From Amoebidium appalachense (lineage: Eukaryota; Protista; Ichthyosporea): DNA of 30,460 nucleotides. The DNA is taken from contig CAVNZM010000046.1 of the NCBI GenBank assembly GCA_963693365.1, positions 1-30,460 on the forward strand. The letters are read 5' to 3'. The translations under genes and the position numbers were made by a program. Position 1 is the first letter of the stretch. Each line of letters starts with the position of its first letter. The notes under the pieces are model-generated. The model was not told the origin of the DNA. It made no database searches and was given only the letters and a program-made list of their open reading frames with translations. Below are positions 4,771 to 24,716 of this stretch, piece after piece.

Positions 4771-5550
4771 CTATCTGACCTTGACGTTGAACTCCTGCGG
4801 CAGCGTTGGCCCCGCCACCATGTCCGGGATGGGCATCATCGGCGCGTCCGTGTTCGCCAGCCCGCGGATCTCGGCAAAGTCGTGTGTGCGGATCCCCCTG
4901 CGTGCATGCACCACCTTCTCTGGGTCCACGCGTGCCGGGTTTGTCGCGTATGTCGGTAGCGGCGGCCGCACGCCCTGCTGTGCATCCTCCCTGCTGTTCA
5001 GCACGGCCTCCGGCCGGGCTCCCTCGTTGCGCATGTTGCCGTTGTACACTGGCGCGCGCGTGCGTGTGCGGTACAGCTCACGCATGTAGTTGCTGCGCGA
5101 CTGCTGTTCCTCGGGATGCACATGGCCGTCGACGGCAGCACCTGCCAGCACGGCCACGGTCTGGGGGAGGGGTGTGCGGTCGGCGGCGTTGGCGGCGTCG
5201 TCGAAGGGCTTCTGCCGTTGGTAGGGCGAGAGGTAGCGGAATCTGCCGTAGTGCTCGTCATGGGGCACCTCCATGACCTTGGTGTTGAGACGGTCGAGGG
5301 GGTTGAACGGCCGATTGAGGCCGAGGGCGTCAGTGGCCCCGGCGTGCGGTGCATAAAGGGTGTTCCTGTCGAGGTTCAGGTTAGGCTGGAAGTCTGCGGG
5401 GGACAGGGGCGGGGCGGGCTTGGGCGGAGGGTCCGGGTTGTCAAACCCCCAGGCCTGATAGAACGGATTGCCTTCGTGCGAACTCACGTACAGGTAGACC
5501 ACCGCCAAACACACGATTGCAAGGGCGAGCTCCGAGTGCGAACTGTCCAT
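4771..5550 (-). CDS. Hypothetical membrane-anchored protein (259 aa)
   Basis: N-terminal hydrophobic helix LALAIVCLAVVYLYV followed by a Pro-rich region. GC3-rich. Confidence 0.75.
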   Translation of the reverse strand: MDSSHSELALAIVCLAVVYLYVSSHEGNPFYQAWGFDNPDPPPKPAPPLSPADFQPNLNLDRNTLYAPHAGATDALGLNRPFNPLDRLNTKVMEVPHDEHYGRFRYLSPYQRQKPFDDAANAADRTPLPQTVAVLAGAAVDGHVHPEEQQSRSNYMRELYRTRTRAPVYNGNMRNEGARPEAVLNSREDAQQGVRPPLPTYATNPARVDPEKVVHARRGIRTHDFAEIRGLANTDAPMMPIPDMVAGPTLPQEFNVKVR

Positions 5551-5608
5551 TGAGAAGGGCTACATTAATGCCACCGCCACGGGTTGGCGCTGTTTATTGC
5601 CTGTGCGC

Positions 5609-6118
5609 TCAGCGCCGGCACACCTGGTAGTCGACCACGTACCGCACGCGGTCCCGCAGCGTCCGCAGGTGGCTGACCCCAAACAGCCGCCCGTGCTTGT
5701 TGACCTTGCGGTCAAGGCACACCTCGAGCGCGCCCTCGCACGGCCGCCACTGGTTGTCAGGGCACAGGATCTCGAGCGTGACCTTGGTCAGGCGCACACT
5801 CTTGTGGATGTTGCCGTTCGAGTCGATGGTGTTGGACTCCGTGTACGGCACCAGCGGCTTGCGCCCGTCCATTAGGCCCCAGCCGTTGGCCACCTCCAAG
5901 TCGACGTAGCTGTTCTCAGACCCCACATCGTACACCAGCTTGAACGTCTTCTTCTGCCCCGCCACGCGCACCGTCACCATGTGCGTCTTCGAGCACTCGG
6001 GGATCAGGAACACCGGCACCTTGCTGTGCCGCGTCGACGTCCGCCGCACGCACGTCTCGAGCCGTCGTGCCCGGCAAGCGCAGCCGCGCCCTCTGGCTTT
6101 GCGTTTTCGTTGATGCAT
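5609..6118 (-). CDS. Retropepsin-like (clan AA) aspartic protease homolog (169 aa)
   Basis: MVTVRVAG..LVYDVGSENSYV..VANGWGL, a flap-like TIDSNG, and C-terminal LFGVSHLRTL..VVDY. The active-site motif is DVG rather than D[T/S]G. ATG at 6118. Confidence 0.7.
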   Translation of the reverse strand: MHQRKRKARGRGCACRARRLETCVRRTSTRHSKVPVFLIPECSKTHMVTVRVAGQKKTFKLVYDVGSENSYVDLEVANGWGLMDGRKPLVPYTESNTIDSNGNIHKSVRLTKVTLEILCPDNQWRPCEGALEVCLDRKVNKHGRLFGVSHLRTLRDRVRYVVDYQVCRR

Positions 6119-6165
6119 ACTGGGGGCCCACAATGTAGCGTTGGCCGCTCAACGGCCGCGCCTTT

Positions 6166-6426
6166 TTAGGGCTTCTTGAAGCTCTTCCAGCACCGCCGCT
6201 TGCGGCAGCAGCCCCGCTTGGGCTTCTTGCGCCCGGGAACCAGGCCCTTGCACTGGCCGGCGTACGAGCACATGACGTACTTCATGTTGTAGTCGGTGAC
6301 GCGCTTGATCCACTCGGGATCCGCCGAGGGGAAGCGCTTGTAGAGGTCCTGGCCGATCATGGCCTTGACGTGGTGGTCTGTGATGCCCGTGCTTTCCGGT
6401 AACATTTGCAGAAGGCGCAAAAACAT
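6166..6426 (-). CDS. Small protein with a basic, Cys-rich C-terminus (~86 aa)
   Basis: ATG 6426 (MFLRLL...), GC3-rich, tail RKKPKRGCCRKRRCWKSFKKP. Confidence 0.6.
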   Translation of the reverse strand: MFLRLLQMLPESTGITDHHVKAMIGQDLYKRFPSADPEWIKRVTDYNMKYVMCSYAGQCKGLVPGRKKPKRGCCRKRRCWKSFKKP

Positions 6427-6471
6427 ATGCTGCGTCGCGCCGTGGGAGCTATTTTGGTTCACAACGCCCGC

Positions 6472-9099
6472 CTACTTGACGAGTCGCAACAGCACCGTGT
6501 ACCGACCGACCACGAGGTTGTCTTCCAAATCACGCACCTCGACTGACACGGACGTGGCCGCGGTGCGGTGCATGAGCCACATCTGCCCGTGCGAGCTCAG
6601 GAGGTCCGCGCGCACCGTGTGGCCGTCACGCACCAGCACGTACGTCAGGCCCGGGCGGGAGCGGCCGGCGTAGTCGTTGGGGTCGGTGGGCATGGTTTCG
6701 GCAGTGGATGGGTCCGACTGGAGGGCGGGCCGGCACCAACTGACGCCCCTGCCGAAGACGTCATCGATCTTGACATAGAAAAGCATGGTCGCAGGGGCTG
6801 GCCGGGGACACGGAACCATTAAGGCGCTGCCGTCCGTGTAGTAATACCTTCTGGGCGGACGAAACTGCAAGATGCCCACCCTGTCCAGGGCGCTGTTTTC
6901 GAAGTAGCTCCGCCTAATGCTCGCCCAATCCATTTTAGCCGTAACCATCTTCGGGGGTAAAGGGGTATCAAAGTCGACGTCATTGAATGATTCATAGATA
7001 CGACATGATAGAACTTTTTTTGTGGGCTCTGATATCCCAAGGGCACGGCAGAGGGGGCCGGTGAATTCTACACGGATTGGTGTTCTGAAATACTCCGGTG
7101 ACATATAACACAGGTGGCGAAGACGCAACGAATCGTCAGTCCAGAGCAGGGCATTTTCCCAGTTAGGGCGGACGAATATAGTGTAGGTATTCAACTTATC
7201 GTCGTCACCTAAGGGTTGATGACCGATTCTCATGTATACCGCCCTTAAATCTTCCACCACTGCGTCCATAGGATTAGGCGTGTTAGGCACTGGGTTTTCC
7301 TCTGTGAGAATGTACATCAGCGCAAAATATTCTGGCCCGTAGTTGTCCATCCAAGGCTTCATAATGGGGACTGGGCCGTAGGGGTATTCCGCCATTTCGC
7401 TTTGTAACCTTGCATCATAGACTATTGGTTCTGGGTAACTGATCTTTTTTTCTCGGCACACATGTGCAAGTTCCAATGGGGATTTCACTTCTAAATAGAA
7501 AGGCATTAGATAGTCGTGTTTGACCTCGGATGGTTCTATCCTGTTATCGACATGTGGATTATATGGTGATAAACTGACTTCGAATGTGTGGACTGTGTAT
7601 TTTGACACATCAACAGTAACAAGCGATCCAAACTCATTTGAAGTGTAGTAGTATTGGTCTGTACCATGCTGAACCCTGTATATAGTTTGTCGTTCGGAAA
7701 CTTCATTCCCGCCACGAAATTTCCAATTGAACCGATATAGTATACTCTCCAAAAGCACGTGTTCAATTGTATAGTTTATGTCAGAGATCCGATCTGTTTC
7801 GCCGTACAGAGGTTGCGCAAAAAGAAGCCCCCTGTGTATTCTGGCAACGACTGTCCTGCTGGCCAACATGCGGTCATCGATGACGACTATTGAATTAGCC
7901 TCTCGTGGCTTTAGTGAAGAATACGGGTCATGCCCACCAGCTTGGAACCACTCAAGCAGCTCAATAGGCATTGATTCCAGAGGGCGGCTTGAGGGGAAGG
8001 TTGTGGTCGCGTGAACTCTAAGTCTCGTGTAACTCGCACAGTCTTTGGTGTCTTGGAAGTCTTCTGGTGTATAAAAACAGGCCCTATCGCTTAGTGTACC
8101 AGCCGGCAGATCCGGTTTAATATGTGCGCCTGACCCGAAGCCAGCCATTCCCATATTGCCGAACCAGCCTTCATGTATGATTAAAGGTCCATCTGGTGTT
8201 TGCCTCGGTGGTTGAATAAATTCTATCTTTTTCTTGTATGTATCAAGAGTCTTCAAAACAGGCCAACTCTGCATGGGCACAAGACTGATTGGATATCTGT
8301 TCCATTGTATAATGCGTGGAACAGCCGTCCCATTGATATGAAGATCTTGATACGTAGAGTCTGTAGGGTCAAGCTCGGTTGGGCTCAGGTTATGATTGAG
8401 AAACCCAATGGTTGATGTTCGGTCGTAAATTGGTGGTCTTAAACCAAAACTCTCCAGAATATGATTAGATGACAGATACGTCGCCTGAATCCCAAAATTG
8501 AAACGTTTGATCATCGTGTCAATGAGATATGCAGCCGTGTAACGACCTTCGGGGATATTCACGCTGACAGTAATATCACGAAAAGGTGGATCGGGATTGG
8601 TAAGAAGTGTGGGTGCATCTCGCACCACACAACTGACAGTGTTGTTCTTCGCCGTCACAACAAAACCCTCCTCCGTGCTCCCGTGCACGGTCACTGACTC
8701 TACTTGCACCCCCCGAACGCCGTGCACGCGCTGTGCAAGCTGTGTGGTCACCTTGGAATCGGGTGCGGCCATTGAATTGCTCAGGAGCACATACTCGTCC
8801 TCCACTCTACCGCCCGCATCTCGGCTGTATCCACCCATCCCCGCCTGCACGTTACCCCCGTCTGCCCCATGCTCACGGCTGCCCGACGTGGAACCCTCCC
8901 TCACGGTCCGCGTCTGCGCCTGCCGAACTGCACCCCCCACGCCCTGCTTGTTCTGCTGTCTCTGCGCATTTCCCTGCTCTCCCCCTTCCACAAAGGCCTT
9001 CATCTCGGCGTAGATCTTGGCCCGGGACCCGGAGTACGGGGGCATGCCGGGCGTGCGCGACGCACGCCGCCCGTCGCTGTCTGAACCCCGCGTGGCCAT
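6472..9099 (-). CDS. Penton/minor-capsid-like single jelly-roll protein with a very large insertion (875 aa)
   Basis: N-part QLAQRVHGVRGVQVESVTV...NNTV...VNIPEGRYTAAYLI; C-part LCRALG...MLFYVKIDD...VSVEVRDLEDNLVVGRYTVLLRLVK. This is the motif order of NCLDV penton-type proteins and is shared with the gene at 24895. Confidence 0.65.
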   Translation of the reverse strand: MATRGSDSDGRRASRTPGMPPYSGSRAKIYAEMKAFVEGGEQGNAQRQQNKQGVGGAVRQAQTRTVREGSTSGSREHGADGGNVQAGMGGYSRDAGGRVEDEYVLLSNSMAAPDSKVTTQLAQRVHGVRGVQVESVTVHGSTEEGFVVTAKNNTVSCVVRDAPTLLTNPDPPFRDITVSVNIPEGRYTAAYLIDTMIKRFNFGIQATYLSSNHILESFGLRPPIYDRTSTIGFLNHNLSPTELDPTDSTYQDLHINGTAVPRIIQWNRYPISLVPMQSWPVLKTLDTYKKKIEFIQPPRQTPDGPLIIHEGWFGNMGMAGFGSGAHIKPDLPAGTLSDRACFYTPEDFQDTKDCASYTRLRVHATTTFPSSRPLESMPIELLEWFQAGGHDPYSSLKPREANSIVVIDDRMLASRTVVARIHRGLLFAQPLYGETDRISDINYTIEHVLLESILYRFNWKFRGGNEVSERQTIYRVQHGTDQYYYTSNEFGSLVTVDVSKYTVHTFEVSLSPYNPHVDNRIEPSEVKHDYLMPFYLEVKSPLELAHVCREKKISYPEPIVYDARLQSEMAEYPYGPVPIMKPWMDNYGPEYFALMYILTEENPVPNTPNPMDAVVEDLRAVYMRIGHQPLGDDDKLNTYTIFVRPNWENALLWTDDSLRLRHLCYMSPEYFRTPIRVEFTGPLCRALGISEPTKKVLSCRIYESFNDVDFDTPLPPKMVTAKMDWASIRRSYFENSALDRVGILQFRPPRRYYYTDGSALMVPCPRPAPATMLFYVKIDDVFGRGVSWCRPALQSDPSTAETMPTDPNDYAGRSRPGLTYVLVRDGHTVRADLLSSHGQMWLMHRTAATSVSVEVRDLEDNLVVGRYTVLLRLVK

Positions 9100-9124
9100 T
9101 AGTGAGTCTCACCATTTTATTGGA

Positions 9125-10567
9125 TCAACCAGCTCCCAGCAGCAGCAGCACGAGCGCCACCGCGATCACCAGGCCCCAGTACGCCGCGGCGTTCGCGTGC
9201 GCCCAGGCGCTTGCCGACCCCAGTGGTGTTGGGGCAGGCTGTGTCGGCACAGGCGGCGCAGGCGGGTTCTGCGAGTCCTTTCCAGCCTCCCCAGGCACAC
9301 CGGGTACGGCCGGAGCCCCGGGCTCTGAGGGCTTGTTGTCGGGGTTGGTGTTGGTGGTGGTGGCACCCGACTCCTCCTTGCCGATCTGCATGAGGCACTG
9401 CTGTACCTGCGTGGCCTGGATCTTGGCGTCAGTGTTCTCCGTGACCTCCATGGCCTGGTTGCAGATCTGCACGTTGAGCGCCGTGCACTCCTCGTTCTCC
9501 ATGTCGCGCGTCTTGTAGCCCTGCACCTTGCACACGGCGTGGTGGCACTGCACGCTCCAGCCGAACTTCTTCTTGAGTGTGGCGTGGTCCATTCCCGCCG
9601 GCAGCGGCGCAAAGCACCCGCACGTGGGATCATTGACCCCGGCCTCGGTCTTGCAAAAGAACTCGGCATATGCATTCACAGCGCTGTCCTGTGTTGCCGG
9701 GAAAAGGTAGTTCTTGTCCATGCGAGCCTGGTCGTGCAGCGGAACCACCGAATCGTCCCGCCCGCGCGAAAACTCGAGGAGGTCGCGCAGCCGCAGCGGC
9801 CTAGCGGTGTCCCAGTTCTGCTCTCGCTTGTAGTCAAACTTGTACAGCAGGTAGCGGTCGTGCATGCGCAGGAGGCTCACGGGCCGCATGGTGTGGTCGT
9901 TTCCCTTGGCCAGCTCGCCGCGGTACTGGACTCGCAGCTTGGACTGCTGCAGGGACACAAGGTGGCGGTGCGGGGCGCGCAGCCAGTAGTCCGGGTTCCA
10001 GTACTTCTGGTAGTCGTCCCACTTCCAGTCCTGGTTCTTCCTGGAGGCCGAAGGGGCGCACATCTTGTCGCCGGGGTTGTACGTGGGGAAGGCCGGTTGG
10101 TCGCTGAGCGCCACGTAGTCGGCCGGGCACGTGAGCACCTTGAGCCGGGTGGCGTTCTGGCGGGTGCTGGCCGGGCACCCAACGGCCTGTGCGTCCTCCT
10201 GGATGTCTGCCAGGCTGGGGGTGTAGCAGAATCGCGGGTCGTCGTAGATCAGACACACCAGGTCCGAGTCGACGGGGTTGTACTCGGGGTCGCCGTGGTT
10301 TCGCCTGCAGCCGGCGGGGTCCTCTGCGGTCGCACACGAGGCCCACGACACAAAAGAGACGGCCTTGTATTTCGGGAACGCAGGGTGTGGCAGGGGGAAC
10401 TGGAGCTTGAGCGAGGGCATGCGCCCACCGTGGTGCGCCCACTCGTTGCCGAACTGCCAGTCCCACAGTTGCTTTCGGTACTCGTCCCAGCGCACGAACT
10501 TCCACGGGTAGTCCGGGTTCTCCTTGAGACGCTCGATGTCGTCCTTTCCCCAGGTGATGTTGGCCAT
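9125..10567 (-). CDS. Poxvirus A16/G9/J5-like entry-fusion membrane protein (480 aa)
   Basis: FCKTEAGVNDPTCGCF...VQCHHAVCKVQGYKT...CTALNVQICNQ has the Cys spacing of the Pox_G9-A16 domain. It is followed by a Pro-rich stalk and a C-terminal TM helix (YWGLVIAVALVLLLL). Confidence 0.8.
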   Translation of the reverse strand: MANITWGKDDIERLKENPDYPWKFVRWDEYRKQLWDWQFGNEWAHHGGRMPSLKLQFPLPHPAFPKYKAVSFVSWASCATAEDPAGCRRNHGDPEYNPVDSDLVCLIYDDPRFCYTPSLADIQEDAQAVGCPASTRQNATRLKVLTCPADYVALSDQPAFPTYNPGDKMCAPSASRKNQDWKWDDYQKYWNPDYWLRAPHRHLVSLQQSKLRVQYRGELAKGNDHTMRPVSLLRMHDRYLLYKFDYKREQNWDTARPLRLRDLLEFSRGRDDSVVPLHDQARMDKNYLFPATQDSAVNAYAEFFCKTEAGVNDPTCGCFAPLPAGMDHATLKKKFGWSVQCHHAVCKVQGYKTRDMENEECTALNVQICNQAMEVTENTDAKIQATQVQQCLMQIGKEESGATTTNTNPDNKPSEPGAPAVPGVPGEAGKDSQNPPAPPVPTQPAPTPLGSASAWAHANAAAYWGLVIAVALVLLLLGAG

Positions 10568-11319
10568 CAGTTACCATCCTCCCCATTAATTTGTGCACGC
10601 CGGGCCTGCAGCCAAAGCAGCGCGCGGGCGGCCAGGGCACCAGCCACGCCGCCCAGCAGGGGCCCCAGGAAGAAGATCCACAGGTGCTTGAGGTCGTGGC
10701 TGTCGCCAAACGTGGCCGCCGCAAGGCTTCTTGCGGGGTTGATGGAGCAGCCGGTGACAGTGACCAACAGCATGTGCATGAGAAACACCACAGACCCGAT
10801 GGCGAGAGGGGAAATGACGGGCGCGACGTCCTCAAGCTTGGGATGCTTGCATGCCAGCGACACCGTAAACACCAAGAACGCCGTGGCGAGCAACTCCATG
10901 GCCAGGGCCTCGGCCTGGGTGGTCCCGCCGACAAGCCCGTTTGTTCCGAACGAGCCGTGGAGGGCGGGAGGCATGCCGGCCCGCAGCAACGCCGTGCCCA
11001 CGATACCTCCGGTAAACTGGGCGGTGAAGTAGAGCGGGAGAAGCACGGGGTCCAGCCAACCGGCGGCAACCATGCCCAGAGTCACCGCCGGGTTGACGTG
11101 GGCACCCGACACGGGGCCCAGCACGGCCACCAGCCCCCCAACAACACCCCCGAACCCGGCGGCCACAGCAAGGACGTCAGCGGCCGATGATGCACCGTGT
11201 GAGGTTTCACCCGTGGCCATGGCGATGCCGATGGCGGTGAAGGTGAGCAGGGCGGTGCCGCAGAACTCGGCGATGAAGGTGGGTGCGTTGTGCAGGAGGA
11301 AGGACTTCACGCTCTGCAT
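10567..11319 (-). CDS. Aquaporin (MIP family), orthodox water-channel type (250 aa)
   Basis: AEFCGT helix 1, SGAHVNPAVT and TGCSINPARS NPA boxes, WIFFLGPLLGG, six hydrophobic segments. ATG at 11319 (ACCATG). Confidence 0.97.
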   Translation of the reverse strand: MQSVKSFLLHNAPTFIAEFCGTALLTFTAIGIAMATGETSHGASSAADVLAVAAGFGGVVGGLVAVLGPVSGAHVNPAVTLGMVAAGWLDPVLLPLYFTAQFTGGIVGTALLRAGMPPALHGSFGTNGLVGGTTQAEALAMELLATAFLVFTVSLACKHPKLEDVAPVISPLAIGSVVFLMHMLLVTVTGCSINPARSLAAATFGDSHDLKHLWIFFLGPLLGGVAGALAARALLWLQARRAQINGEDGN

Positions 11320-11354
11320 GGTTGAGTGTGGCACACATTTTGTGGGGTGGTGGT

Positions 11355-12185
11355 TTATTTGGACTTTTTGAGGATCTCGCGGGGGCGCTCTACCAGCATG
11401 CCAAGGGAAGTGTGTGGGGGGACCAGGTGGATGATCTCGGTGGCGCTCTCCGTGGTGTTGTACGGCTCGCTTAGGAGCACCACGGAGTCGTACCCACGGG
11501 CCCGGGCCTCATTGATGAGGTCGAAGTCGTAGAAGTCGAAGTAGCCCGTTCCAACAATGGAGCTGTAGTGCGCGCCGCTGCGCATGAGCTCGACGAGTCT
11601 GTCCACCTCGGCCACGTAGTGCTTCTTGTTCTGCGTTTTGGAGAGCACCTGAGACACGAAGTACTGGTCGCCCGGATGGAAGGACTCTTTGGTCAGTCGG
11701 TTGTGGAAGTTCCAGTTTAGCTGCACCAGCGCGTCCAGCTTGGTTTTGGCCACCAGGGGGTTGGCCAGGTTCAGGTACAGGGCGGTGGTGTCTGGGGCGG
11801 CATAGTAAAAGGTATAGGTGGGGCCATTTGGTGCCTTGCGTACGTCACTGGCCCGTCCGAACCGCATGACCTCCACGTACCCCCTGCTAAACGACTCCAG
11901 TTTGGGAAACGGCCGCGTGGTGCACGTCGTCGAGGGCTCACGGTACAGCTTGTCCCGCCTACAGAATTTTGGCGGGTTTTTAAGAAGGAAGTAAGCGTTG
12001 CGCCTGCGCAGGTCGAATGGGCAGCTGTCGGTCTTGTGCACGGCCTTCATGTAGTGTGGGTTGCAGCGGCTGGCCTTGAGCTTGTCGTAGCTGAAGACGC
12101 GCTTGCGGGCGCTGCTGTTGAACAGGTGCTTGTACTCGGTGATGGGCCGTAGCGGCCTGCGCTCACGCGTGCTGGGTGCGTCCAT
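11355..12185 (-). CDS. Putative ADP-ribosyltransferase-fold protein (276 aa)
   Basis: YVEVMR ... FYY ... LYLNLANPL ... ARARGYDSVVL ... TEIIHL resembles the ART-PolyVal-like motif order. ATG 12185. Confidence 0.45.
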   Translation of the reverse strand: MDAPSTRERRPLRPITEYKHLFNSSARKRVFSYDKLKASRCNPHYMKAVHKTDSCPFDLRRRNAYFLLKNPPKFCRRDKLYREPSTTCTTRPFPKLESFSRGYVEVMRFGRASDVRKAPNGPTYTFYYAAPDTTALYLNLANPLVAKTKLDALVQLNWNFHNRLTKESFHPGDQYFVSQVLSKTQNKKHYVAEVDRLVELMRSGAHYSSIVGTGYFDFYDFDLINEARARGYDSVVLLSEPYNTTESATEIIHLVPPHTSLGMLVERPREILKKSK

Positions 12186-12192
12186 CGTGTTG

Positions 12193-12402
12193 TCAGTTGG
12201 CCTTCTTTTTTTGCTCGGGGGCCACCGCAGCCGCCTTGGCACTGCGCGACCGGAAAATCTCCTCGTACATCTTCTCCATGGACGGCCGCGGGGTCTGCTC
12301 GGTCACCTCCCTGCCGTTGAGCTGCAGGTACGTGATCAGTTGGGCAGTGGAAAGGTGGTCGGCCAGACCCACGTGTGGGGACGTGCGGGCGTGCTTGCGC
12401 AT
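12193..12402 (-). CDS. Small HeH/LEM-like protein (69 aa)
   Basis: LSTAQLITYLQLNGREVTEQTPRPSMEKMYEE fits the helix-extension-helix pattern LTxxQLxxxLxxxGxxxxxxxxKxxLxxLY. Basic tail. Confidence 0.5.
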   Translation of the reverse strand: MRKHARTSPHVGLADHLSTAQLITYLQLNGREVTEQTPRPSMEKMYEEIFRSRSAKAAAVAPEQKKKAN

Positions 12403-12432
12403 GTTCTACAGGAGGGGGAACAATTTACAACT

Positions 12433-12816
12433 TTACTCAAGCACCCGCCCGGGGTTCAGCAGCACCAGGGCCTCCTTGGGCCCGCCCTGGGCCTTGCTGC
12501 CCCGCACGTACCAGCCGTCCACGCCGAACGCCTGGCACAGCGTGCGTGCGCGGCGCTGCTGCACGGCCGTCAGCTTCGTGCGCTGCGAGAGCGCCAGCAG
12601 GAGCTGCTTCTCGGGGCTGGGCTGCCCGAGGTCGGGGAGGAGCAGCGTGATGTCGGTCTTGACGGTGTACTGGACGGCATGGACGCCCCTCTTCGCGAGG
12701 TGCGTGCCGTTGCTGAGGATGCGGGCGCCCTTACGGATAGCGAGGGTGACGTTGCCGTTGAAGTGGCGGGAGTTGCACATCTTGCGGTCGAGACACAACC
12801 CGTTCGGTGCGGGCAT
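12433..12816 (-). CDS. Small, possibly degenerate ART-fold protein (127 aa)
   Basis: TAAATG start. Motifs IRKGARI ... YTVKTDITLL ... LCQAFGVDGW ... EALVLLNP. The CDS call is solid; the fold call is tentative. Confidence 0.4.
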   Translation of the reverse strand: MPAPNGLCLDRKMCNSRHFNGNVTLAIRKGARILSNGTHLAKRGVHAVQYTVKTDITLLLPDLGQPSPEKQLLLALSQRTKLTAVQQRRARTLCQAFGVDGWYVRGSKAQGGPKEALVLLNPGRVLE

Positions 12817-12898
12817 TTACGAGGGGCTTGCATTATGTGAGGTGCTTTCGGCTTGGCACGCTGCGGCTGTTGGTTTTTGCACTTCAAGGGCTTCCTGG

Positions 12899-12912
12899 CG
12901 AAGGTATAAAAG
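12899..12912 (+). promoter_or_regulatory. TATA element CGAAGGTATAAAAG
   Basis: TATA lies 42 nt before ATG 12947. 13 nt (GAAGGTATAAAAG) are identical to the element at 18816-18828 on the minus strand. Confidence 0.75.
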
Positions 12913-12946
12913 GCCAACACACTCCCACAGGAGCTCAGTCTGCAAC

Positions 12947-14135
12947 ATGGCACTCCCTCCACCTTCATCTACTCTGACCTCTACCCTGGGGCCCAAGGCT
13001 GCACTGCTCGGCGAGTTCGCCAAGTTCTGGGACCTGGACGGCGACATCGACGAGCTGGCCATCAACGAGGAGCTGAGCGGGGCCCGTGTGCAGGCGCTGT
13101 TGTTCAACTACAAGAACGACAGGGACGGAAGACTCGCCATTGCCGAACATTTCAAGAACCGCGATCATGACATTGAGGGACATGACTACCGTTTTGTTAC
13201 AAAGAGGTGAGACAGACAGACAGCCCCGAAACATGATTTTAATTTTTAATATTACATCAAAGACCCTCTATCCAATGGGAATTTGCGACCCCTGGGTCGC
13301 AAAAAAGGATGATTGGACAATAGCTCTGTGAACTTCCAAATATGGCAATTCTAAAATAATTGACAAGTGAACATTCTGACTTGCGGACTTCAACTGCAGG
13401 GCACAGGGGCGTGGTCGACCCGTGACGGAGATTTTCATGAACCCCAAGACCTTCAAGTTGCTCGTCATGACCGTCCAGACTGCCATCGGACACGAAGTGC
13501 GCTACTACTACTGGCGGGTCGAACAAGCCTTCAAGGTACTGCACCGCCAGAACCGTGCTCAGGTCGAGGCCGCTCTGGCCGAGGCAACCGCGCGTGCCCT
13601 TGAGCACGAGACCCACATCATGCAGCTGTCCAACAACCTGGAGAAGATGGAGCAGTGGTACACGCAGACGGCAGAGCTTCTGGACTCCGCCAACGAGCGC
13701 CTGGCAATGCACGAGTGCGACGATGACCACCCCCAGCGCATCGTGTCCCTTCCCCCTGGAACAATCCCTGTGGCTCGCTGCATGGAGACGGACTACGGGA
13801 GAGAGCTGGCCCGCAAGGTGTTCCATGACGCAGCCATAGTGCTGTGGCGCAACCACGAGGAGTTCGAGCACCGGTTTGACCCCAGCTACTGGAACACGTT
13901 CATCAAGTGGCACATGAATGTGGACGTCGATCAGGGCATGTACCGCTCGCACATCAACGTGTACACCGCCATGTGTAAGGCCGCAAACGTCCTGCACGGG
14001 GTGCCCAAGATTACCCACCTGACCTACACCCAGCTCTATGATGTGCTGCGCCGCCTGGTGCAGATGGGCTGCGACCTGGTGCAGAAGACCGAACTCGAGT
14101 TGGTGTTCGGTGACCAGATCTACATCCCTCTTTAG
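12947..14135 (+). CDS. Spliced MSV199/antirepressor-like DNA-binding protein with coiled coil (exons 12947-13206 and 13400-14135; 331 aa)
   Basis: Splicing keeps the frame and gives EGHDYRFVTKR-AQGRGRPVTEIFMNPKTFKLLVMTVQTAIGHEVRYYYWRVEQ. This restores the ExxDY...GRG...FKxLxM..T..G.EVRxYY..xE motif of MSV199-type NCLDV proteins across the junction. Confidence 0.8.
13207..13399 (+). other. Spliceosomal (U2-type) intron, 193 nt, phase 2
   Basis: Donor AG|GTGAGA, branch TTCTGAC (A at 13379), acceptor CTGCAG|G. About 40% GC by hand count against GC-rich exons. Removal gives an in-frame fusion. Confidence 0.82.
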
Positions 14136-14245
14136 AGGGTTCGGGGGGGGGGTCGTGTTAATTTTTAGCCATTGGCTTGAACCATTTTTGACACCCGTGG
14201 GTGTAGAAATTCCGATGATTTGATTGGTCCGTATTGTCTCACTTC

Positions 14246-14374
14246 TCAAATAAAGTACCCGTTCAGTTCGTTCAGCAGGTTCAGCAGCATGGCCGCAAAC
14301 AGCACGAACGTGGCAATCAGTCGCGCGTACTTGAGCTTGTAGTCAAACGTCCATTGGTCGGGCAGGAGCTTCAT
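14246..14374 (-). CDS. 42-aa single-pass membrane microprotein (below the ORF-track cutoff)
   Basis: MKLLPDQWTFDYKLKYARLIATFVLFAAMLLNLLNELNGYFI*. Strong GC3 bias, CAACATG start, AATAAAAT tract upstream. Confidence 0.6.
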   Translation of the reverse strand: MKLLPDQWTFDYKLKYARLIATFVLFAAMLLNLLNELNGYFI

Positions 14375-14423
14375 GTTGCTTCAGCCCCCTATTTTATTGC
14401 CTGGTTGCCCCGTCCCCACCCCC

Positions 14424-15530
14424 TTACCCCTCCTTCGTCTCCTTGCCCTGGTTCAACATCTCCGCCAGCCTTCGCTTGCGCGCCTGCATGCGCGTGCGCG
14501 TCTCCTGGTCCACGTAGTCGTCGTCGTCCGAGGTCTCGACGTCCTCGCCGGCCGCCCGGCGTGACTCGCGGTCGGTGACGTAGGCGCCGTAGAGGTCCGT
14601 GATGACCCGTGCGTCCTTGTTGATGGGATGCGGGAACCCGGCCACCAGCTCCGGCAGCCGCGGCGTGCACTTCTGCACGCGCACGCGCACGTACTGCACG
14701 CGGAGCATCTCGTAGCGCGCGAGCAGCGTCTCGTGGTCGTCCTTGAGCTTGTTGAACTGGATCTCCTTCTGCTGCAGCGCGGCCACGCGGGCGTTGAGGT
14801 GGCGGATGTGCTCGACGTAGCGCTCGCACTCGGGGTTGCTGCGCTTCATCTTCTCCAGTTGGTCCTTGAGCAGCTCGTTCTCGCGCTTGGCCGCGTGCAG
14901 CTGGCCCTTGTCCTCCACCGTCTCCTTGAGCGACTTGTAGTTGGCCCGCAGCTCCACCAGCTCGCGGTTGTTGGTCTCGGCGTTCTGGATGGACTCGCGT
15001 GCCTCGCGCAGGTCCAGCATGATCGCACGGGCGGTGGACTCGTCCACGCCCTTGCGCTGCAGCGTGCTCTGGTCGCCGATGCCCTGCAGGATGTGCACCA
15101 ACACGTTGGCAATCTCGCGTGTGAGCGCGCCGTTGCTGCGGTTGGTCCCGTTCAGCTGCTCGCGGAACCGGGACATGTCAATGGGCAACTTCCACACGAC
15201 CTCCTTCGAGTCCTTGTTTATATTCCCGTCCTTGTCCAAAGTGGGCATGTCCGAAAACGCCAGCTCCACAGCCATTGTAGCAGTGGAGTTGTCACTGGCA
15301 AATGATTGCAGGGCAGTTTCGATGGCCGGCGGGAGTTTGTTGTAGATGTCGCCTATCACTTTCTGGTGGCTCGAGATGACGGCGTTGTTTTGGTTCAACA
15401 GCTTGGCGATCATATCGGTTACACTCTTGATGTCCTGTGTTTGCACGATGCCACTCGGCCCTCCACCCCCAAACTTCAATTTCGTGAGGATCTCTATAGC
15501 CCTGTTAAGATCATCCTGGCTCATGCTCAT
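14424..15530 (-). CDS. Coiled-coil hypothetical protein (~368 aa)
   Basis: CAAATG start (MSMSQDD...), long heptad-rich E/K/L/R region, very high GC3, AATAAA downstream. Confidence 0.8.
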   Translation of the reverse strand: MSMSQDDLNRAIEILTKLKFGGGGPSGIVQTQDIKSVTDMIAKLLNQNNAVISSHQKVIGDIYNKLPPAIETALQSFASDNSTATMAVELAFSDMPTLDKDGNINKDSKEVVWKLPIDMSRFREQLNGTNRSNGALTREIANVLVHILQGIGDQSTLQRKGVDESTARAIMLDLREARESIQNAETNNRELVELRANYKSLKETVEDKGQLHAAKRENELLKDQLEKMKRSNPECERYVEHIRHLNARVAALQQKEIQFNKLKDDHETLLARYEMLRVQYVRVRVQKCTPRLPELVAGFPHPINKDARVITDLYGAYVTDRESRRAAGEDVETSDDDDYVDQETRTRMQARKRRLAEMLNQGKETKEG

Positions 15531-15593
15531 TTGCTCTTGCCCCACATAATGCAGCTTTGGCCACACCCCACCGCATTATTCCCTTGGTCAACA

Positions 15594-15824
15594 ATGTCCG
15601 TGCTCGCCAACGTGATGATGTTTGTCTTCTGGGCGCTCGCCGTCGGCTCCATGGCCGGGTTCATGAGCCTGTACAGCGCCATGACGAAGGAGAAGTGCGT
15701 CGAGGCCGCCGTGAAGAACAGGTACGAGGCCTCGAACACTGCCGTGATGGTGGCCCTGGTGGTCACCGTGTTTGCGTACCTCATCTACGGCGTGTACGCG
15801 TCGGCCTCCTCCGCGCAGGTATAA
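15594..15824 (+). CDS. Small two-TM membrane protein (76 aa)
   Basis: ACAATG start, two hydrophobic helices, high GC3. Confidence 0.7.
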   Translation: MSVLANVMMFVFWALAVGSMAGFMSLYSAMTKEKCVEAAVKNRYEASNTAVMVALVVTVFAYLIYGVYASASSAQV

Positions 15825-15826
15825 AG
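15814..15826 (+). promoter_or_regulatory. TATA element CGCAGGTATAAAG overlapping the upstream stop codon
   Basis: TATA lies 42 nt before ATG 15862. Its TAA (15822-15824) is the stop of the preceding gene. Confidence 0.6.
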
Positions 15827-15861
15827 GGAGCTCGTCCGCAATTGTTGCGCCCAGTCTCAGT

Positions 15862-16254
15862 ATGGGTGCCGTCGCCTCGCAGCCCATCGTGTGCGCGCCG
15901 GTGCAGACCTTCTTCGTCACCACGGACGCCGACTGCTCGCCCGTCCTGGTCACCAACCGTCTCATGGGCACGCTGACCGTGGACTCGACCCGCGTGACCG
16001 TGTGGGCGTCCACGCGCCCGCTCTACTTTCTGCCCACCACGGGCCTCAAGGCCATGCCCCCAGACCAGTACCTGCCGGCGGCCGTGCAGCACGGCTGCGA
16101 CGCACTGCTGGCGAACCGGCTGGTGCTGGGGGGCGACCCCGAGTCGCTGGGGCTCGTGCGCCTGGCCGACATGACGCCGCGCGAGTTCAAGCAGTACCGG
16201 CCGATCTTCGTGTCCGGCACCGTCACCACGTCCATCACCGTGCCGCAGCTCTAG
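15862..16254 (+). CDS. Putative N-myristoylated protein (130 aa)
   Basis: MGAVAS fits MGxxxS. Very high GC3. Confidence 0.7.
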   Translation: MGAVASQPIVCAPVQTFFVTTDADCSPVLVTNRLMGTLTVDSTRVTVWASTRPLYFLPTTGLKAMPPDQYLPAAVQHGCDALLANRLVLGGDPESLGLVRLADMTPREFKQYRPIFVSGTVTTSITVPQL

Positions 16255-16909
16255 GCGTCATAGTCTCGCACCACGCCAGGTCCTTGAGGAACAGCCCCAT
16301 GTTGAAGTACTGCACCAGGCTGTTGAGTCCCGCCAGGAACGGCCGCCGAAACATCGGGTTGCCGGCCATCCCCGGCACCGGGTGGTTCCAGCGCGACTTG
16401 AGCGCCACCTCGAACACCTCGTCCGCGAGGAACCACTGCATGTTGCGCTTCTCCAGGAAGTCGTACTTGACGCGCAGCGTGCCGTCGCGCACCTCTGTCG
16501 ACCCCGGCAGAGCCAGCTGGCCTGCCGACAGCGCCTGGCGCGCAGCCCGGAACCGGTGCGGCAGGTGCGGGTCAAATGGGATCTGCACCATATACGTAAT
16601 AAAGTAGCGGTTCTGACCGGCCGCTCCCGCAAACCTGAGCACGTACGCCCGGTCCCGCAGGATGCCCTCGAGCATCGGGCGGGGGATCACAGTGTCCAGT
16701 GTCTCCTCGTAGAACTCCATGACCGTGGTCTCCTCCACGGTCAGGCCCGCCTTGAGCCTCCCGCCAAACACCCCGTACCTCCCGTCACTGTCCTCCTGTC
16801 CGAGGAGGAACAGCACGCGACGGTCGTGCACGGCGTAGGGTAGTACGCCGGCGCCGATGATGCGACAGTCATCGTCGTGGTAGGGGATGCACATGTCCAG
16901 GACCTTCAT
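16235..16909 (-). CDS. Nudix hydrolase-family protein (NCLDV type) with a divergent Nudix box
   Basis: GAGVLPY..VLFLLGQE..YGVFGGRLKAGLTVEETTVMEFYEETL, then FLEK..MQWF. Confidence 0.82.
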   Translation of the reverse strand: MKVLDMCIPYHDDDCRIIGAGVLPYAVHDRRVLFLLGQEDSDGRYGVFGGRLKAGLTVEETTVMEFYEETLDTVIPRPMLEGILRDRAYVLRFAGAAGQNRYFITYMVQIPFDPHLPHRFRAARQALSAGQLALPGSTEVRDGTLRVKYDFLEKRNMQWFLADEVFEVALKSRWNHPVPGMAGNPMFRRPFLAGLNSLVQYFNMGLFLKDLAWCETMTPRAAAR

Positions 16910-17037
16910 CAAGTGGAGGGGAGATAATCTGGGGTGGGGTCGGTGCCAAACTCACCAGAAACTTGGGGGCGAGCGCGCCCGGCCGGTCTGGGTGAATATC
17001 GGGTGAACCAGGGTGGCTTCAGCGCGAAGGGGTCAAA

Positions 17038-17167
17038 AAACGGTCAAAGCAGCGCAGGTTTGGCCAATATCAGGTGAAGCTAGCGCGAAGTTGGTGAATA
17101 TTCAATGAAGAGGCAGGTGCACGGTTCTCCAATAAACGGTCAAAGCAGCGCAGGGTTTGCCAATATC
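17038..17167. repeat. Direct repeat AAACGGTCAAAGCAGCGCAGG...CCAATATC (two copies 96 bp apart)
   Basis: Copies start at 17038 and 17134. Confidence 0.85.
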
Positions 17168-17260
17168 CGATCGACCAAAAACAAATCCTCGGTCAATATC
17201 CGGTGAACCCCAATTCGTGTACGACGAAAATCCTAGTAAACACAAAACTAAATTGGCGCC

Positions 17261-17458
17261 ATCCCCGGCCAATATCCAGCGAACCCAAAAACGAAGTCGC
17301 GCGACCCCCAGCCAATATCCAGTGAACCCCAAAATGATGTCGCGCGATCCCCAGCCAATATCCGGTGAACCCCAAAACGATGTCGCGCGATCCCCAGCCA
17401 ATATCCAGTGAACCCCAAAACGATGTCGCGCGATCCCCGGCCAATATCCGGTGAACCA
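17261..17458. repeat. 43-bp tandem repeat (~4.6 copies), consensus CCCCAGCCAATATCCRGTGAACCCCAAAACGATGTCGCGCGAT
   Basis: CCAAT at 17269, 17312, 17355, 17398 and 17441 (exact 43-bp period). Each full unit holds the palindrome TCGCGCGA. Degenerate AATATC cores flank the array from ~16995 to ~17480. Confidence 0.95.
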
Positions 17459-17539
17459 AAACAGAACCTCAGTCAATATCGATCGATCCACGGAGCATCC
17501 CTTTCAATAATGCTTGAATCAGATTCACCCGCTATTCGA

Positions 17540-17648
17540 TCTGATTGGTCGAAAACGGCCAAGATCAATCGAGCCCGGGATTCACACTCTGACCAATCAG
17601 AACGCGCAGAAATTCAAAGCCAGTGCTCCGATGTTTCAGCCAATCAGA
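17540..17648. promoter_or_regulatory. Cluster of NF-Y-type CCAAT boxes, two forming an 11-bp inverted repeat
   Basis: TCTGATTGGTC (17540-17550), GACCAATCAGA (17591-17601), AGCCAATCAGA (17638-17648). Confidence 0.55.
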
Positions 17649-17885
17649 GCGCCCCACATTAGATCACGAGACCCAGCCAGTCTGTTTCAACTCATTCGCA
17701 AATATCTTTATTTATTTTGAGAGTGGCCAGGTGCGCTCCAAATAAAAAAAAATGCAATGCAATCCCGTTGGACCAAACTTGCATCCCGGGCCCCGAATTT
17801 TACACACCTGGCCAGCCAGATGATACAAAACACACCCGAACCCGCCATCCCCACAGCAGCCCTGCCAATTGTTGGGGATGACAGG

Positions 17886-18779
17886 CTACCCCAGCACGTG
17901 CTTCTCCAGGAAGCGCACGGGGTACACCTTGACCGGGCGCAGGTCCCCCTGCACCATCTTCAACGTCTCCTCGGGCTCGCAGCCCTCCTGCTCGCGCCAC
18001 GTGCGTGCGAGCATCCGGCCGACCGTGCTGCTGGACCTGTCGGTGATGCCTCGGTCGACGAGGAACTTGGCCACGGTCACGTACCCGCCGATCGCAGACT
18101 CCTCGATGGCCGTGCTAGTTCGGGTAGGGACAAGGATGTTGGCAAGGGTGTCGTTGAGCAGCATGCGCATGCGTGGGTCCCTATCGAGGCCAAAGTCTTC
18201 CAGCAGGCCACGGTACATGGTGATATTTTCCATCTCCAGGCGCCTGACCTCCGCCTCCTCCCGGCGCAGACGCAGCCGACGCTCCTCCTCCAGCTCCTCG
18301 CGGCGCCGCTTGCGGTCGGGGGTCTCGTCGGTGCCGTTGCGGAAGAACTCACGCTCCTCGGGGGTGCTGGCGTCGTAGCGCGCCTCAATCTCGGGGATGA
18401 GGGAGACGTCGCCGGAAAGCAGCCGGGCTATGTAGGTGGCACACGTCCTGCGGAACTCGTGGGCGCGCTTGCCGGGAAGCAGGAAGATGATCTCGAGGAG
18501 GACACGGAAGGGGGCGATTGGGGTGGGCTTTCCAACCCCATTGATCTGGGCGTCCTCAGCCTCGCTGAGGATGTCAACAACACTATGGTCCTTTGATTTC
18601 TTGATCTGTGACCATGCCTCGTACATCGCCGCCTTTCCAATCACCATTGAAATCACATCTAGGACACTTGCCATGTTCTTGTCTCTGTCAATGCGCATAG
18701 TGCAACCTTTGAACTGCGGGAACTCCCTCCAAAGGTCCTGAAGCCACATGTCGCCTTTTTTGTTCTGCTCGCCAGCCAT
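17886..18779 (-). CDS. Bro-N-like viral DNA-binding protein with coiled coil (297 aa)
   Basis: ASVLDVI...INGVGKPTPIA...LLEIIFLLPGKRAHEFRRTCA..IARLLSGDVSLIPEIE, a motif typical of a Bro-like family of algal and protist giant viruses. Confidence 0.75.
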   Translation of the reverse strand: MAGEQNKKGDMWLQDLWREFPQFKGCTMRIDRDKNMASVLDVISMVIGKAAMYEAWSQIKKSKDHSVVDILSEAEDAQINGVGKPTPIAPFRVLLEIIFLLPGKRAHEFRRTCATYIARLLSGDVSLIPEIEARYDASTPEEREFFRNGTDETPDRKRRREELEEERRLRLRREEAEVRRLEMENITMYRGLLEDFGLDRDPRMRMLLNDTLANILVPTRTSTAIEESAIGGYVTVAKFLVDRGITDRSSSTVGRMLARTWREQEGCEPEETLKMVQGDLRPVKVYPVRFLEKHVLG

Positions 18780-21165: not shown

Positions 21166-22671
21166 ATGGCACACGGGCGAGGGAGGGATGTAGTGGAAAG
21201 ATTTCCCGTGAAGCCGCGCTGCTTTTTCAGGTTCGTAAAGAAAAATGCAGAACATTTTGTGGAAGAAACGCCGGTCTCCCCCAGCACTCAGACGTACGCA
21301 TGGACACCGGAAAACGGTTGCCTCTCCCTCTCCCTGGAAAGCACAGAACCCGACACGATCCCGGTGTATCTTGCCTGTGTTAAACGTCTCCGGTTCGATG
21401 CGCAACAGGATGGCTACTCCGTGAATATCGAGTTCGAGAACCAAGATAGTCCTGGGATACGCACCTTCGACACAACTTACGATTCGGTTCGAAACTTCAT
21501 GTTGGACAAGAGGGGCAATGCTTTCAAGGAGATCATGGTGAAGCACGCCCCATACCAGATCGAGGAGTACAAAAAGAGTACCATCCCTGGGAACCCAACA
21601 CCCCCATATTTGCAGGAGGATTCGGTAGCAGACCTCTTGTTTGACAAACTGTACCGCGGGGCCCAACAAATTTCGGGGTCCATAAAAGATTTGATAGGGG
21701 TGGGGTCTGTGTGGACTTCGCCTGCAGTAGAGGGGAGAACCAATACTATAGTAATGCTACAGACATATCTTCCGAAGTCCACAATTTTCGCCCCCGGAGA
21801 ATTGCTCCGTACACAACCCAACAACGAGTCAATGACTGTCCAGCAATCGTTTAGGAATCTCAGGAACGATGGCTTCATGACCACCATATCGATGCCTAAA
21901 TGGAAGTTCTTTTTTAGGAACGAACTCGCGACAATGTTGTTCCAATGGCTGACTGACCCCCAACGGGTGCCCTACTTTATTATATACACAGGTGAAGTGC
22001 ACCATGCTTCTGTCATCATACTCGTTTCAGGTGACAAGTCGAGTATAGTTCTGGAGTTCTTCAATGTCCATGCCCCGAGTAGCACGTTGACAAAAGCCCT
22101 TGTCTCATTCATGAGAAGCGCTGATCCCACAGGCAAGCTGAAAGACATACTTCGATCCCTCAAACCCGAAAGGGTTTGCACTGATTTGCAAAATCTTCAT
22201 GGAAAAAGGACATTGTACGACGAATTGTTTGACAGAGACGAGGTGGTCGATGGGGCCTGTGCGTCTTGGTTGAGTATTTATATACTGCTGCGGACTTCAC
22301 AAGCCGACTGGTCGTCCATACCGGGTGCGGATGGGCACACCATAGGCGAGCGGATCTGCAACTTCATCAAGACGAAAATCGCAAGGGATGGGGGATTCCA
22401 AGCGGTCTATAAGGTCGGGGGAACGATCGCGATGTACGGAAAGCGCCTGATCGAACTCTACGGGGCTAAGATGTATCAAACTGCGGATTGGTGGGCGCAA
22501 GACGGCGTCAATCAACAGGAGCGTTACCGAGAGGTCGTGGACATGGTGCTTTCCAAGAAAGTTCTCGTATTGACCGATGCCGAGCTTAAGGATGCAGGAC
22601 TGCCAACACGCAAGGACGGCGAGCAACTTGTGAACGAGGTCCGAGAACAAGCGGCGCGCCTCCTCCCCTGA
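21166..22671 (+). CDS. Putative CE-clan-like (Ulp1/adenain order) cysteine protease, paralog A (501 aa)
   Basis: HASVII...LEFFN...DLQ...DGACASWLSIYILLR gives His-Asn-Gln-Cys in CE-clan order. Co-linear with 27494..29020. Confidence 0.6.
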   Translation: MAHGRGRDVVERFPVKPRCFFRFVKKNAEHFVEETPVSPSTQTYAWTPENGCLSLSLESTEPDTIPVYLACVKRLRFDAQQDGYSVNIEFENQDSPGIRTFDTTYDSVRNFMLDKRGNAFKEIMVKHAPYQIEEYKKSTIPGNPTPPYLQEDSVADLLFDKLYRGAQQISGSIKDLIGVGSVWTSPAVEGRTNTIVMLQTYLPKSTIFAPGELLRTQPNNESMTVQQSFRNLRNDGFMTTISMPKWKFFFRNELATMLFQWLTDPQRVPYFIIYTGEVHHASVIILVSGDKSSIVLEFFNVHAPSSTLTKALVSFMRSADPTGKLKDILRSLKPERVCTDLQNLHGKRTLYDELFDRDEVVDGACASWLSIYILLRTSQADWSSIPGADGHTIGERICNFIKTKIARDGGFQAVYKVGGTIAMYGKRLIELYGAKMYQTADWWAQDGVNQQERYREVVDMVLSKKVLVLTDAELKDAGLPTRKDGEQLVNEVREQAARLLP

Positions 22672-24212: not shown

Positions 24213-24716
24213 ATGGACTTGTCAAATGCGATTGCCTTAATCATTCTAATGCTTACTATCGGTGTGTTGGCATGGGCATACATCAAGTACGAACCCAAAC
24301 CTGCCCCTGGCAAAAACGACAGTACCCCTAAGCCTGGCCCCGGCAAAAACGACAGTACCCCTGCAGTCGCACGGACACAGTGGTATGCTTTCGACCAAGT
24401 GGGGGACCACAGCACGGACAACACGTTTAACGACTGGCAAGACCCGGTGAACTATGGGTACACGTCGGCCAGTCAGTGCATTAACCGATGCCAATCTATG
24501 AGCGGATGCCAACAGGTGGGCTATTCGCCATGGCAGGATATGGACGGGAAGCGGCCAAAAGGCTATTGCTACATGAGAAAAGCCGTCAAGAAATGGCCGT
24601 TGGATGCGTGGTCAAACAAGTCCGGTGTGGCTGCATCGGAATCGCAGGTCACGTATGTGATGGCCGCACAAGTGCCGGAGAGCGAGAAGCAACATGGCAA
24701 GCTGGTTGAGTTCTAG
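24213..24716 (+). CDS. Membrane-anchored PAN/Apple-domain protein (167 aa)
   Basis: N-terminal TM helix, repeat stalk, then SASQCINRCQSMSGCQQVGY...GYCYMRK (C-x3-C-x5-C...CxxK PAN pattern). Confidence 0.72.
   Translation: MDLSNAIALIILMLTIGVLAWAYIKYEPKPAPGKNDSTPKPGPGKNDSTPAVARTQWYAFDQVGDHSTDNTFNDWQDPVNYGYTSASQCINRCQSMSGCQQVGYSPWQDMDGKRPKGYCYMRKAVKKWPLDAWSNKSGVAASESQVTYVMAAQVPESEKQHGKLVEF
24294..24359 (+). repeat. 33-bp coding tandem repeat x2 (PKP[A/G]PGKNDST)
   Basis: Two near-identical copies, each with an NDS glycosylation sequon. Confidence 0.9.

Follow-up and report, generated by a model that had tools for sequence, protein, structure and literature searches.

Spliceosomal introns are rare in nucleocytoviruses. 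They are known from the giant viruses of protists and algae, and an arthropod-linked case would be new; we know of no spliceosomal intron in a nucleocytovirus of animals. In chloroviruses, the DNA polymerase and pdg genes are reported to carry such introns (PMC7019647). Seven of the 461 medusavirus genes are described as putatively spliced (PMC6450098), about 4% of the mollivirus genes are given as spliced, and pandoraviruses also have introns (PMC11814242). The introns reported in the latency genes of punuivirus, which are host-like genes expressed before virus production, have a mean length of 176 bp (10.64898/2026.10.09.758095), the mirusvirus introns described are of the GT-AG type with a CTGAC branch motif in one order (PMC12768974), and introners are reported in integrated dinoflagellate viruses (PMC12166617). 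An earlier, sequence-only reading of the DNA studied here had named pandoraviruses and chloroviruses as examples of nucleus-dependent viruses with such introns; the precedents agree with it and extend to medusavirus, mollivirus, punuivirus, and the mirusviruses. Decaying endogenous elements aside, the nucleocytovirus cases given in these sources are amoebal and algal viruses (PMC7019647, PMC6450098, PMC11814242, 10.64898/2026.10.09.758095, PMC12768974). The "Mininucleoviridae" are nucleocytoviruses that replicate in crustacean nuclei and are described as having the smallest nucleocytovirus genomes, and the word "intron" is absent from the main text of the paper on them (PMC6960288). For Daphnia pulex, isolated capsid genes only are reported (PMC5294986). 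In a preprint on the Ariadnavirales, two nucleus-dependent groups are reported to show no sign of invasion by introns, a contrast with the mirusviruses that is described there as enigmatic (10.64898/2026.08.29.747986).

Here, we describe a 193-nt GT-AG segment within a gene, variable and probably early, of a large DNA virus, found in a stretch of 30,460 nt (the window, meaning the whole stretch of DNA that was analyzed). We estimate the probability that it is a true spliceosomal intron, most likely spliced by the host, at about three in four. The locus resembles the chlorovirus cases in having a single short intron in a probable nucleocytovirus gene, with intron-plus and intron-minus relatives. 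The chlorovirus pdg intron is reported to be nearly 100% conserved while the exons vary, in viruses of an algal host, whereas here the interior of the intron varies and the acceptor is common. Medusavirus, mollivirus, and pandoravirus are GC-rich and nucleus dependent with a minority of genes spliced, as the virus in the window appears to be, but their hosts are amoebae, and the VLTF3 protein encoded in the window is at most 30% identical to its 11 best matches in a structure library, so that no close kinship is demonstrated. Punuivirus, with 61 of 506 genes reported, is integrated in an alga; here, one intron was seen in 30 kb. The mirusviruses share with this locus the GT-AG ends, the CTGAC motif, and different introns at one splice position in related genomes (PMC12768974). 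Their introns are, however, described as mostly about 80 bp long and enriched in virion genes, some with homing endonucleases, and none is encoded in the intron of the window. The small genomes of the Mininucleoviridae stand against a 183-kb contig that carries a relative of the VLTF3 of the window.

Gene layout and splice signals

The gene and its flanks comprise the following features (window coordinates).

12905..12911, forward strand: TATA box, with GG before it and the ATG 42 nt downstream
12936..12939, forward strand: initiator-like CAGT and predicted start of transcription, 31 nt from the first base of the TATA box
12947..13206, forward strand: exon 1, 260 nt, phase 2, N-terminal part of an MSV199/AntA-like domain
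13207..13399, forward strand: intron of allele A, 193 nt, phase 2, GT-AG
13272..13316: intron element, comprising a CCAAT box, a 22-nt inverted repeat (13282 to 13303), and a second CCAAT box on the other strand
13376..13380, forward strand: CTGAC, predicted branch-point motif, with the A at 13379
13400..14135, forward strand: exon 2, C-terminal MSV199-like part, predicted long helix (coiled-coil-like), and helical C-terminal domain with no family match
14185..14227: palindrome/CCAAT element of the 3' flank, with the same core as that of the intron and a close copy inside the allele B intron
14249..14254, forward strand: AATAAA, predicted polyadenylation signal

The segment from 13207 to 13399 has a GC content of 39.9%, compared with 57% and 60% for the exons; it begins with GTGAGA, ends with CTGCAG, and contains stops in all three frames. 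The branch-point A lies 20 nt ahead of the acceptor end, and the pyrimidine tract of the allele A intron is weak. The sequence-only reading had described a spacer of 193 nt and about 40% GC between AG/GTGAGA and CTGCAG/G, with CTGAC 20 nt from the 3' end, the removal of which keeps the frame. All of these signals are in the sequence, and removal of the segment yields a computed joined frame of 331 codons. The GT...AG ends, the consensus donor and branch point, and the conserved frame regained upon precise removal are the features of a U2-type spliceosomal intron. Random 193-nt deletions across the window read GT..AG on either strand in 377 of 29,960 cases. Three in-frame GT..AG pairs are possible near the junction, and the intron boundaries therefore needed outside evidence.

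A group I or group II self-splicing intron was considered and rejected: an Rfam scan of 13207 to 13399 at E values up to 1 returned no self-splicing intron match, the RNA fold of the segment is ordinary (z = 0.59), and its length is merely 193 nt. An introner would be expected in several near-identical copies in unrelated genes, and a search of the 30-kb window for a second copy of the intron found none; the ends of the allele A intron have 3 letters in common, which is also the usual splice context.

Protein homology across the junction

Residues 11 to 43 of exon 2 match positions 99 to 131 of the 132 positions in the Pfam MSV199 profile (PF10553), which is the end of the domain. The first 60 residues of exon 2 score 22.3 bits, against a gathering cutoff of 22.4, and the whole of exon 2 scores 19.3 bits; a Pfam scan of exon 1 alone did not match MSV199. 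With exon 2 as the query, a search of 1.84 billion representatives returned two matches, among them P0004, a single ORF of 301 aa whose cluster mate, P0009, lies on a 22-kb contig. P0004 matches both exons in their order (exon 1, 34% over 59 columns, E = 2e-9; exon 2, 30% over 235 columns, E = 1e-43). It was also the only protein found by a word-based search with alignment A1; in the word-based search with exon 2, none of 762 candidates passed.

The X-joined protein gives a single alignment to P0004 (residues 18 to 162) with 60.5 bits, compared with 25.3 and 28.1 bits for the halves. For all five single-ORF homologs (P0004 and L015 to L018), the best alignment to the X-joined protein (the two exons with an X at the junction) spans the junction and beats each half; for the four distant MSV199-type loci among them, which come from a metagenome scan, the gain is about 2 to 6 bits. 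A distant profile made of six domains from the four loci of that scan, in which two scanned domains exceed the Pfam cutoff, scores the X-joined protein at 40.4 bits and the first 60 residues of exon 2 at 30.4 bits; with exon 1 shuffled (200 controls), the score is at most 34.3 bits. These comparisons support the earlier claim that an MSV199/antirepressor-like domain is continuous across the junction, and the joined form and the intronless homologs (P0004 and P0009) behave as that reading had anticipated.

The distant profile also discriminates among the possible boundaries, with 40.4 bits for the join that removes 13207 to 13399, compared with 31.0 (13196/13406) and 31.8 for two alternative joins. 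P0004 alone favors 13196/13406 (64.5 versus 57.7 bits), because its loop is shorter. The splice pairs 13196/13406 and 13196/13430 were ruled out by the distant profile together with the joint found in a sequencing run (see below), though P0004 favors the first of them.

Two further proteins, P0003 and P0008, are annotated as exon-2-only proteins, which is what a prokaryotic gene caller would be expected to produce from a split gene. The C-terminal domain is common only to P0003/P0008 and P0004/P0009, and prokaryotic gene callers would truncate this protein family. The fold model of P0004 has a pLDDT under 50 for residues 1 to 86 and is confident for the long helix and the C-terminal helical domain. 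It had no matches in a viral structure library at an E value of 0.001 and generic long-helix matches only in the PDB (best Z, 6.7). In an atlas, P0004 lies nearest to AntA, Bro-N, ORF6N, and MSV199 clusters, with scores of 0.86 to 0.89 that serve as leads only. By family resemblance, the 331-residue protein is predicted to bind DNA.

Unbroken, skipped, and joined forms in sequencing runs

The stretch is contained in 20 of the 24 listed runs, 8 of which were examined in detail; all of the data are contigs. None of the 20 runs is on record as RNA; X17 to X19 are labeled "DNA?", and X22 to X24, which are guessed to be RNA, contain next to none of the words of the window. Contigs of X1, X8, X9, and X13 cross both intron boundaries unbroken, indicating that the segment is real DNA and not an assembly artifact.

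In X17, one contig omits exactly the 193 nt reading GT..AG. Its depth (39.3) is near that of the intron-bearing contig of allele A, the form found in the window (32.6). On the short side of the joint there are 27 letters, and 3 more could belong to either side, at a likeness of 85, and joints with a side under 30 letters at this likeness are flagged as error-prone; the 27 + 3 letters would correspond to the 30-letter overlap expected from 31-letter words. In X18 and X19, exon 1 of a second allele, B, joins the window at 13398, with depths of 196 and 200 and 59 letters on the short side. Allele B contigs that contain the intron match the window from 13397, compared with 13398 in the joined form, and this one-base shift is what an exon-exon join gives. 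The sequence between 13119 and 13398 in the joined contigs was not reported; the allele B contig of X17 ends 88 letters past 13119, at the position equal to 13207.

Joined forms were found in all three runs of one study (P3, comprising X17 to X19) and in none of the five other examined runs. The skip is absent from all four flat-cover runs that carry allele A, and the depth of allele A in X13 is 918. No allele A skip is expected in X18, X19, or X10, because the places that distinguish allele A are uncovered there. The P3 runs contain 44 to 52 million assembled letters, with longest records of 10 to 11 kb. Long-contig depth ranges from 8 to 177 in X18 and from 7 to 79 in X19, compared with 65 to 82 in X10, and 2 and 3 of 30 bins are empty in X18 and X19, respectively, versus none in X10. 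This patchy cover suggests that X17 to X19 are likely transcriptomes, although the run label guesses DNA. Either reading of these runs fixes the intron boundaries, whereas only the RNA reading shows splicing, which we consider likely to occur in RNA. The junction that the sequence-only reading proposed to look for between 13206 and 13400 is thus present, as the exact skip in X17 and as the allele B join in X18 and X19; the part of that proposal that concerned expressed RNA depends on runs that are RNA-like but labeled "DNA?".

No other GT..AG joints were found over 5500 to 17000 in X18 and X19, where the cover is thin over much of the range. The P3 cover is highest over about 12000 to 17000 and low over 5500 to 12000. 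If the runs are RNA, this pattern would agree with a division into early and late genes, although contig depth provides no basis for ranking genes or for estimating the share of cells.

Alleles and the intron interior

The runs contain at least four forms of the locus (A to D). Allele A is the form in the window, with a frame-keeping 3-nt difference at 13165 to 13174 in the five runs covering it. Allele B departs from the window at 13119 and returns to it at 13397. In between it has a close copy of 14185 to 14227, followed by 37 further letters that include a branch-like motif and a pyrimidine tract; its acceptor is that of allele A, but the intron-like sequence ahead of the acceptor differs. 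The intron form of allele B is present in X1 and X8 and partly in X9, X13, and X17. Allele C replaces 13090 to 13524, and a loose end in X18, 126 letters before 13524 and hence at 13398, gives a hint that it may be a third intron-bearing allele. Allele D diverges immediately past the ATG and meets the window again at 14252, next to the AATAAA. A, B, and D look like alternatives at one locus, because their depths in X9 (72, 86, and 64, respectively) add up to about the flank depth (212). Two joints in X13, one from 12887 to 14151 (depth, 509) that bypasses both promoter and gene and one from 12840 to 13017 (depth, 480) that bypasses the promoter, suggest that the population may include forms that lack the gene or its promoter.

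The core of the palindrome occurs at two sites in the window, in the intron and in the 3' flank of the gene, compared with 0.83 expected, and 20 of 100 shuffles reach two. A chance figure for the palindrome-plus-CCAAT pattern is circular, because the pattern was drawn from the two sites. Since the core count is weak and the pattern figure circular, the firm evidence is the copy within allele B. The simplest reading is that the intron and the 3' flank trade sequence by recombination. Speculatively, the element in the intron could be an enhancer, an origin, or a binding site.

Promoter and transcription signals

The TATA promoter noted in the sequence-only reading is present at 12905, and a CAGT motif lies 31 nt downstream. 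TATAWA followed by CAGT occurs at five sites in the window, compared with 0.09 expected, and none of 100 shuffles reaches five. Four of the five sites, including that of the intron gene, have GG-TATA, CAGT at +30 to +32, and an ATG at +42 to +44. No TATA or TATA-plus-CAGT site was found before the internal ATG of exon 2 at 13437. The other sites are at 717, 15820, 18823 (reverse strand), and 21986 (reverse strand), three of which lie 42 to 44 nt ahead of ATGs at 759, 15862, and 18779. The sites with nearby ATGs likely define a class of early genes. The VLTF3 gene (2818, reverse strand) has the GG-TATA and the spacing without CAGT. At 17886 to 18779 (reverse strand), a 297-aa protein without a Pfam match is encoded, the N terminus of which we take to resemble Bro-N-type domains; its gene shares the GAAGGTATAAAA promoter motif with the intron gene, and its 3' flank is rich in CCAAT.

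TATA plus CAGT is reported as a baculovirus early promoter (PMC5988703, PMC1550435) that is read by host Pol II and is akin to the arthropod initiator (PMC5988703). Baculovirus early genes resemble the intron gene, as predicted here, in TATA plus CAGT, use of host Pol II, AATAAA, and occasional splicing (PMC5988703, PMC1550435). The promoter class supports nuclear transcription and, by analogy, gives a hint of an arthropod host. No kinship is known between baculoviruses and viruses that carry VLTF3, and the likeness of the promoters would be convergence on the arthropod nucleus. The sequence-only reading had assigned the gene to host Pol II and the spliceosome: the first part gains support from the TATA-plus-CAGT class, and the second is backed by the exact skip in X17, a run that is only RNA-like.

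The virus, its relatives, and its possible host

VLTF3 is encoded in the window (PF04947, E = 1.4e-33), and its fold matches are mostly nucleocytovirus VLTF3. The model of the protein is poor (pLDDT, 44) and gave no family placement. VLTF3 also occurs in mirusviruses and is therefore not exclusive to the Nucleocytoviricota. The window also encodes SWIB and aquaporin, with weaker matches to an A22-like resolvase and Nudix. A scan of the 32 window proteins found no double jelly-roll capsid protein, A32 packaging ATPase, or family B polymerase and likewise no HK97-type capsid protein, terminase, or portal. Judging from VLTF3 and the weaker hits, the virus is likely a nucleocytovirus; since no capsid gene lies in the 30-kb window, it might instead be a mirusvirus.

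Two close VLTF3 homologs were found, 51% and 50% identical, and the better scoring of the two (51%) lies on a 183-kb contig in an assembly of Daphnia sinensis. The host may thus be Daphnia or something sequenced with Daphnia; the link consists of this single homolog, 51% identical, the contig of which could be cosequenced. No relative came up in scans of IMG/VR with exon 2, VLTF3, P0009, a VLTF3 alignment, or the 3'-flank motif, and none of the 14 IMG/VR hits to the allele B motif is similar to the window. A scan of prokaryote genomes gave one partial VLTF3 (L019) at a contig end, no phage records matched VLTF3, and an exact-sequence lookup of 13 window proteins in a protein collection returned none. 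The literature searched, that outside the subscription journals, gave no description of the present virus; a paper on a Daphnia iridovirus exists. Long open frames lie close together throughout the window, and no host-like multi-intron gene was seen. It is contained in small runs (1 to 3 million assembled letters) with a depth of about 90 in X1, and its depth reaches 6,000 to 9,000 in X13.

Interpretation and alternative explanations

The data are best explained by a gene that depends on the host nucleus. Host nuclear RNA polymerase II would transcribe a probable early viral gene, and the host spliceosome would excise the 193 nt to give one message for a 331-residue protein carrying a predicted MSV199/antirepressor-type DNA-binding domain. 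The viral DNA would have to reach the nucleus, and the host would be an arthropod, probably a water flea. The gene acts as a variable cassette between the promoter and the poly(A) signal, with an intron position that appears older than the alleles and an intron interior that recombination or gene conversion has probably exchanged or rebuilt from the CCAAT/palindrome element of the 3' flank. If the intron is spliced out, the virus could carry such an element in coding sequence without cost to the protein. A more ambitious version, which we regard as tentative and on balance doubtful, is that of a crustacean giant-virus lineage with baculovirus-like early genes (TATA plus CAGT, host Pol II, and AATAAA), the first spliceosomal intron of an animal nucleocytovirus, and a swappable CCAAT/palindrome slot that serves as an enhancer, an origin, or a self-binding site.

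The joined forms could instead be intronless DNA alleles in P3 runs that are DNA, as their label guesses, in which case the segment would still be an intron. The depths in X17 are alike (32.6 and 32.5 for the two intron-bearing forms and 39.3 for the skip), single-ORF relatives such as P0004 and P0009 indicate that intronless forms exist, and there is a reported precedent in the chlorovirus pdg intron, present in 19 of 42 (PMC7019647). However, the P3 cover varies about 10- to 20-fold among long contigs and includes empty bins, unlike that in X10, and two alleles are joined in the P3 runs and in none of the five others, including X13 with its deep cover of allele A, which makes this explanation unlikely. 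The idea of two separate short genes, or of one gene broken by an unspliced inserted repeat element, draws on the ATG at 13437, which opens a 232-aa ORF in exon 2, on the exon-2-only annotation of P0003 and P0008, and on the relation of the element in the segment to intergenic DNA. Against this, the similarity to P0004 already begins five codons ahead of that ATG, at residue 8 of exon 2, and the ATG has no TATA before it; the exact GT..AG skip exists in X17; and the 3-nt length difference that sets five runs apart from the window late in exon 1 keeps the frame. We consider this idea highly improbable.

A host-resident viral element, integrated or latent, that acquired the intron after entering the nucleus and is either punuivirus-like or decaying would account for the occurrence of the best-scoring VLTF3 homolog in an animal genome assembly and for alleles that co-occur at like depth in X9 (72, 86, and 64), and introns are reported to mark punuivirus latency genes (10.64898/2026.10.09.758095). 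It is nevertheless quite improbable, as the long frames are densely packed and free of any host-like multi-intron gene seen in the window, and the depth in X13 and the presence in small runs suggest high copy, with the proviso that depth does not give a share of cells. The latent version would in fact fit the preferred explanation of a host-spliced viral intron, and only the decayed version is a true rival to it.

With the host-spliced intron as the preferred reading, the kind of intron is known, and this case adds a promoter class of the arthropod type, a probable link to crustaceans, and intron interiors that have been swapped. A spliced early gene with an arthropod-type promoter likely points to a nuclear phase of the virus, in a lineage linked to Daphnia, itself a model in research on hosts and parasites. 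Because single samples contain several alleles that differ in the intron at this position, the turnover of virus introns can be traced in such a population.

Other features of the window

An intact viral aquaporin is encoded at 10567 to 11319 on the reverse strand (MIP, E = 3e-45; best PDB matches, AQP1). The adjoining frame, at 9125 to 10567 on the reverse strand, encodes a 480-aa protein with a cysteine-rich stretch and a C-terminal hydrophobic segment; it matched DUF5773 at an E value of 0.12 only, atlas and PDB searches gave no match, and we take it to resemble poxvirus entry-fusion proteins. Two inverted, lower-GC paralogs of about 500 aa with no Pfam family are found at 21166 to 22671 (forward strand) and 27494 to 29020 (reverse strand) and are 73 to 74% alike over stretches of about 100 nt. 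Long proteins at 6472 to 9099 (reverse strand) and 24694 to 26253 (forward strand) have no family match and share a short "P.G.Y" motif, presumably of the kind known from viral minor capsid proteins; the former has a low-GC middle, and X10 and X13 have a variant at 7329. The region from 16910 to 17880 is noncoding, with 43-nt tandem repeats (17236 to 17457) and a dense set of CCAAT boxes (14 in 971 nt, versus 53 in the whole window), and runs depart from the window at 16928 and 16955. We take this repeat region to resemble the homologous regions of baculoviruses, which act as origins or enhancers.
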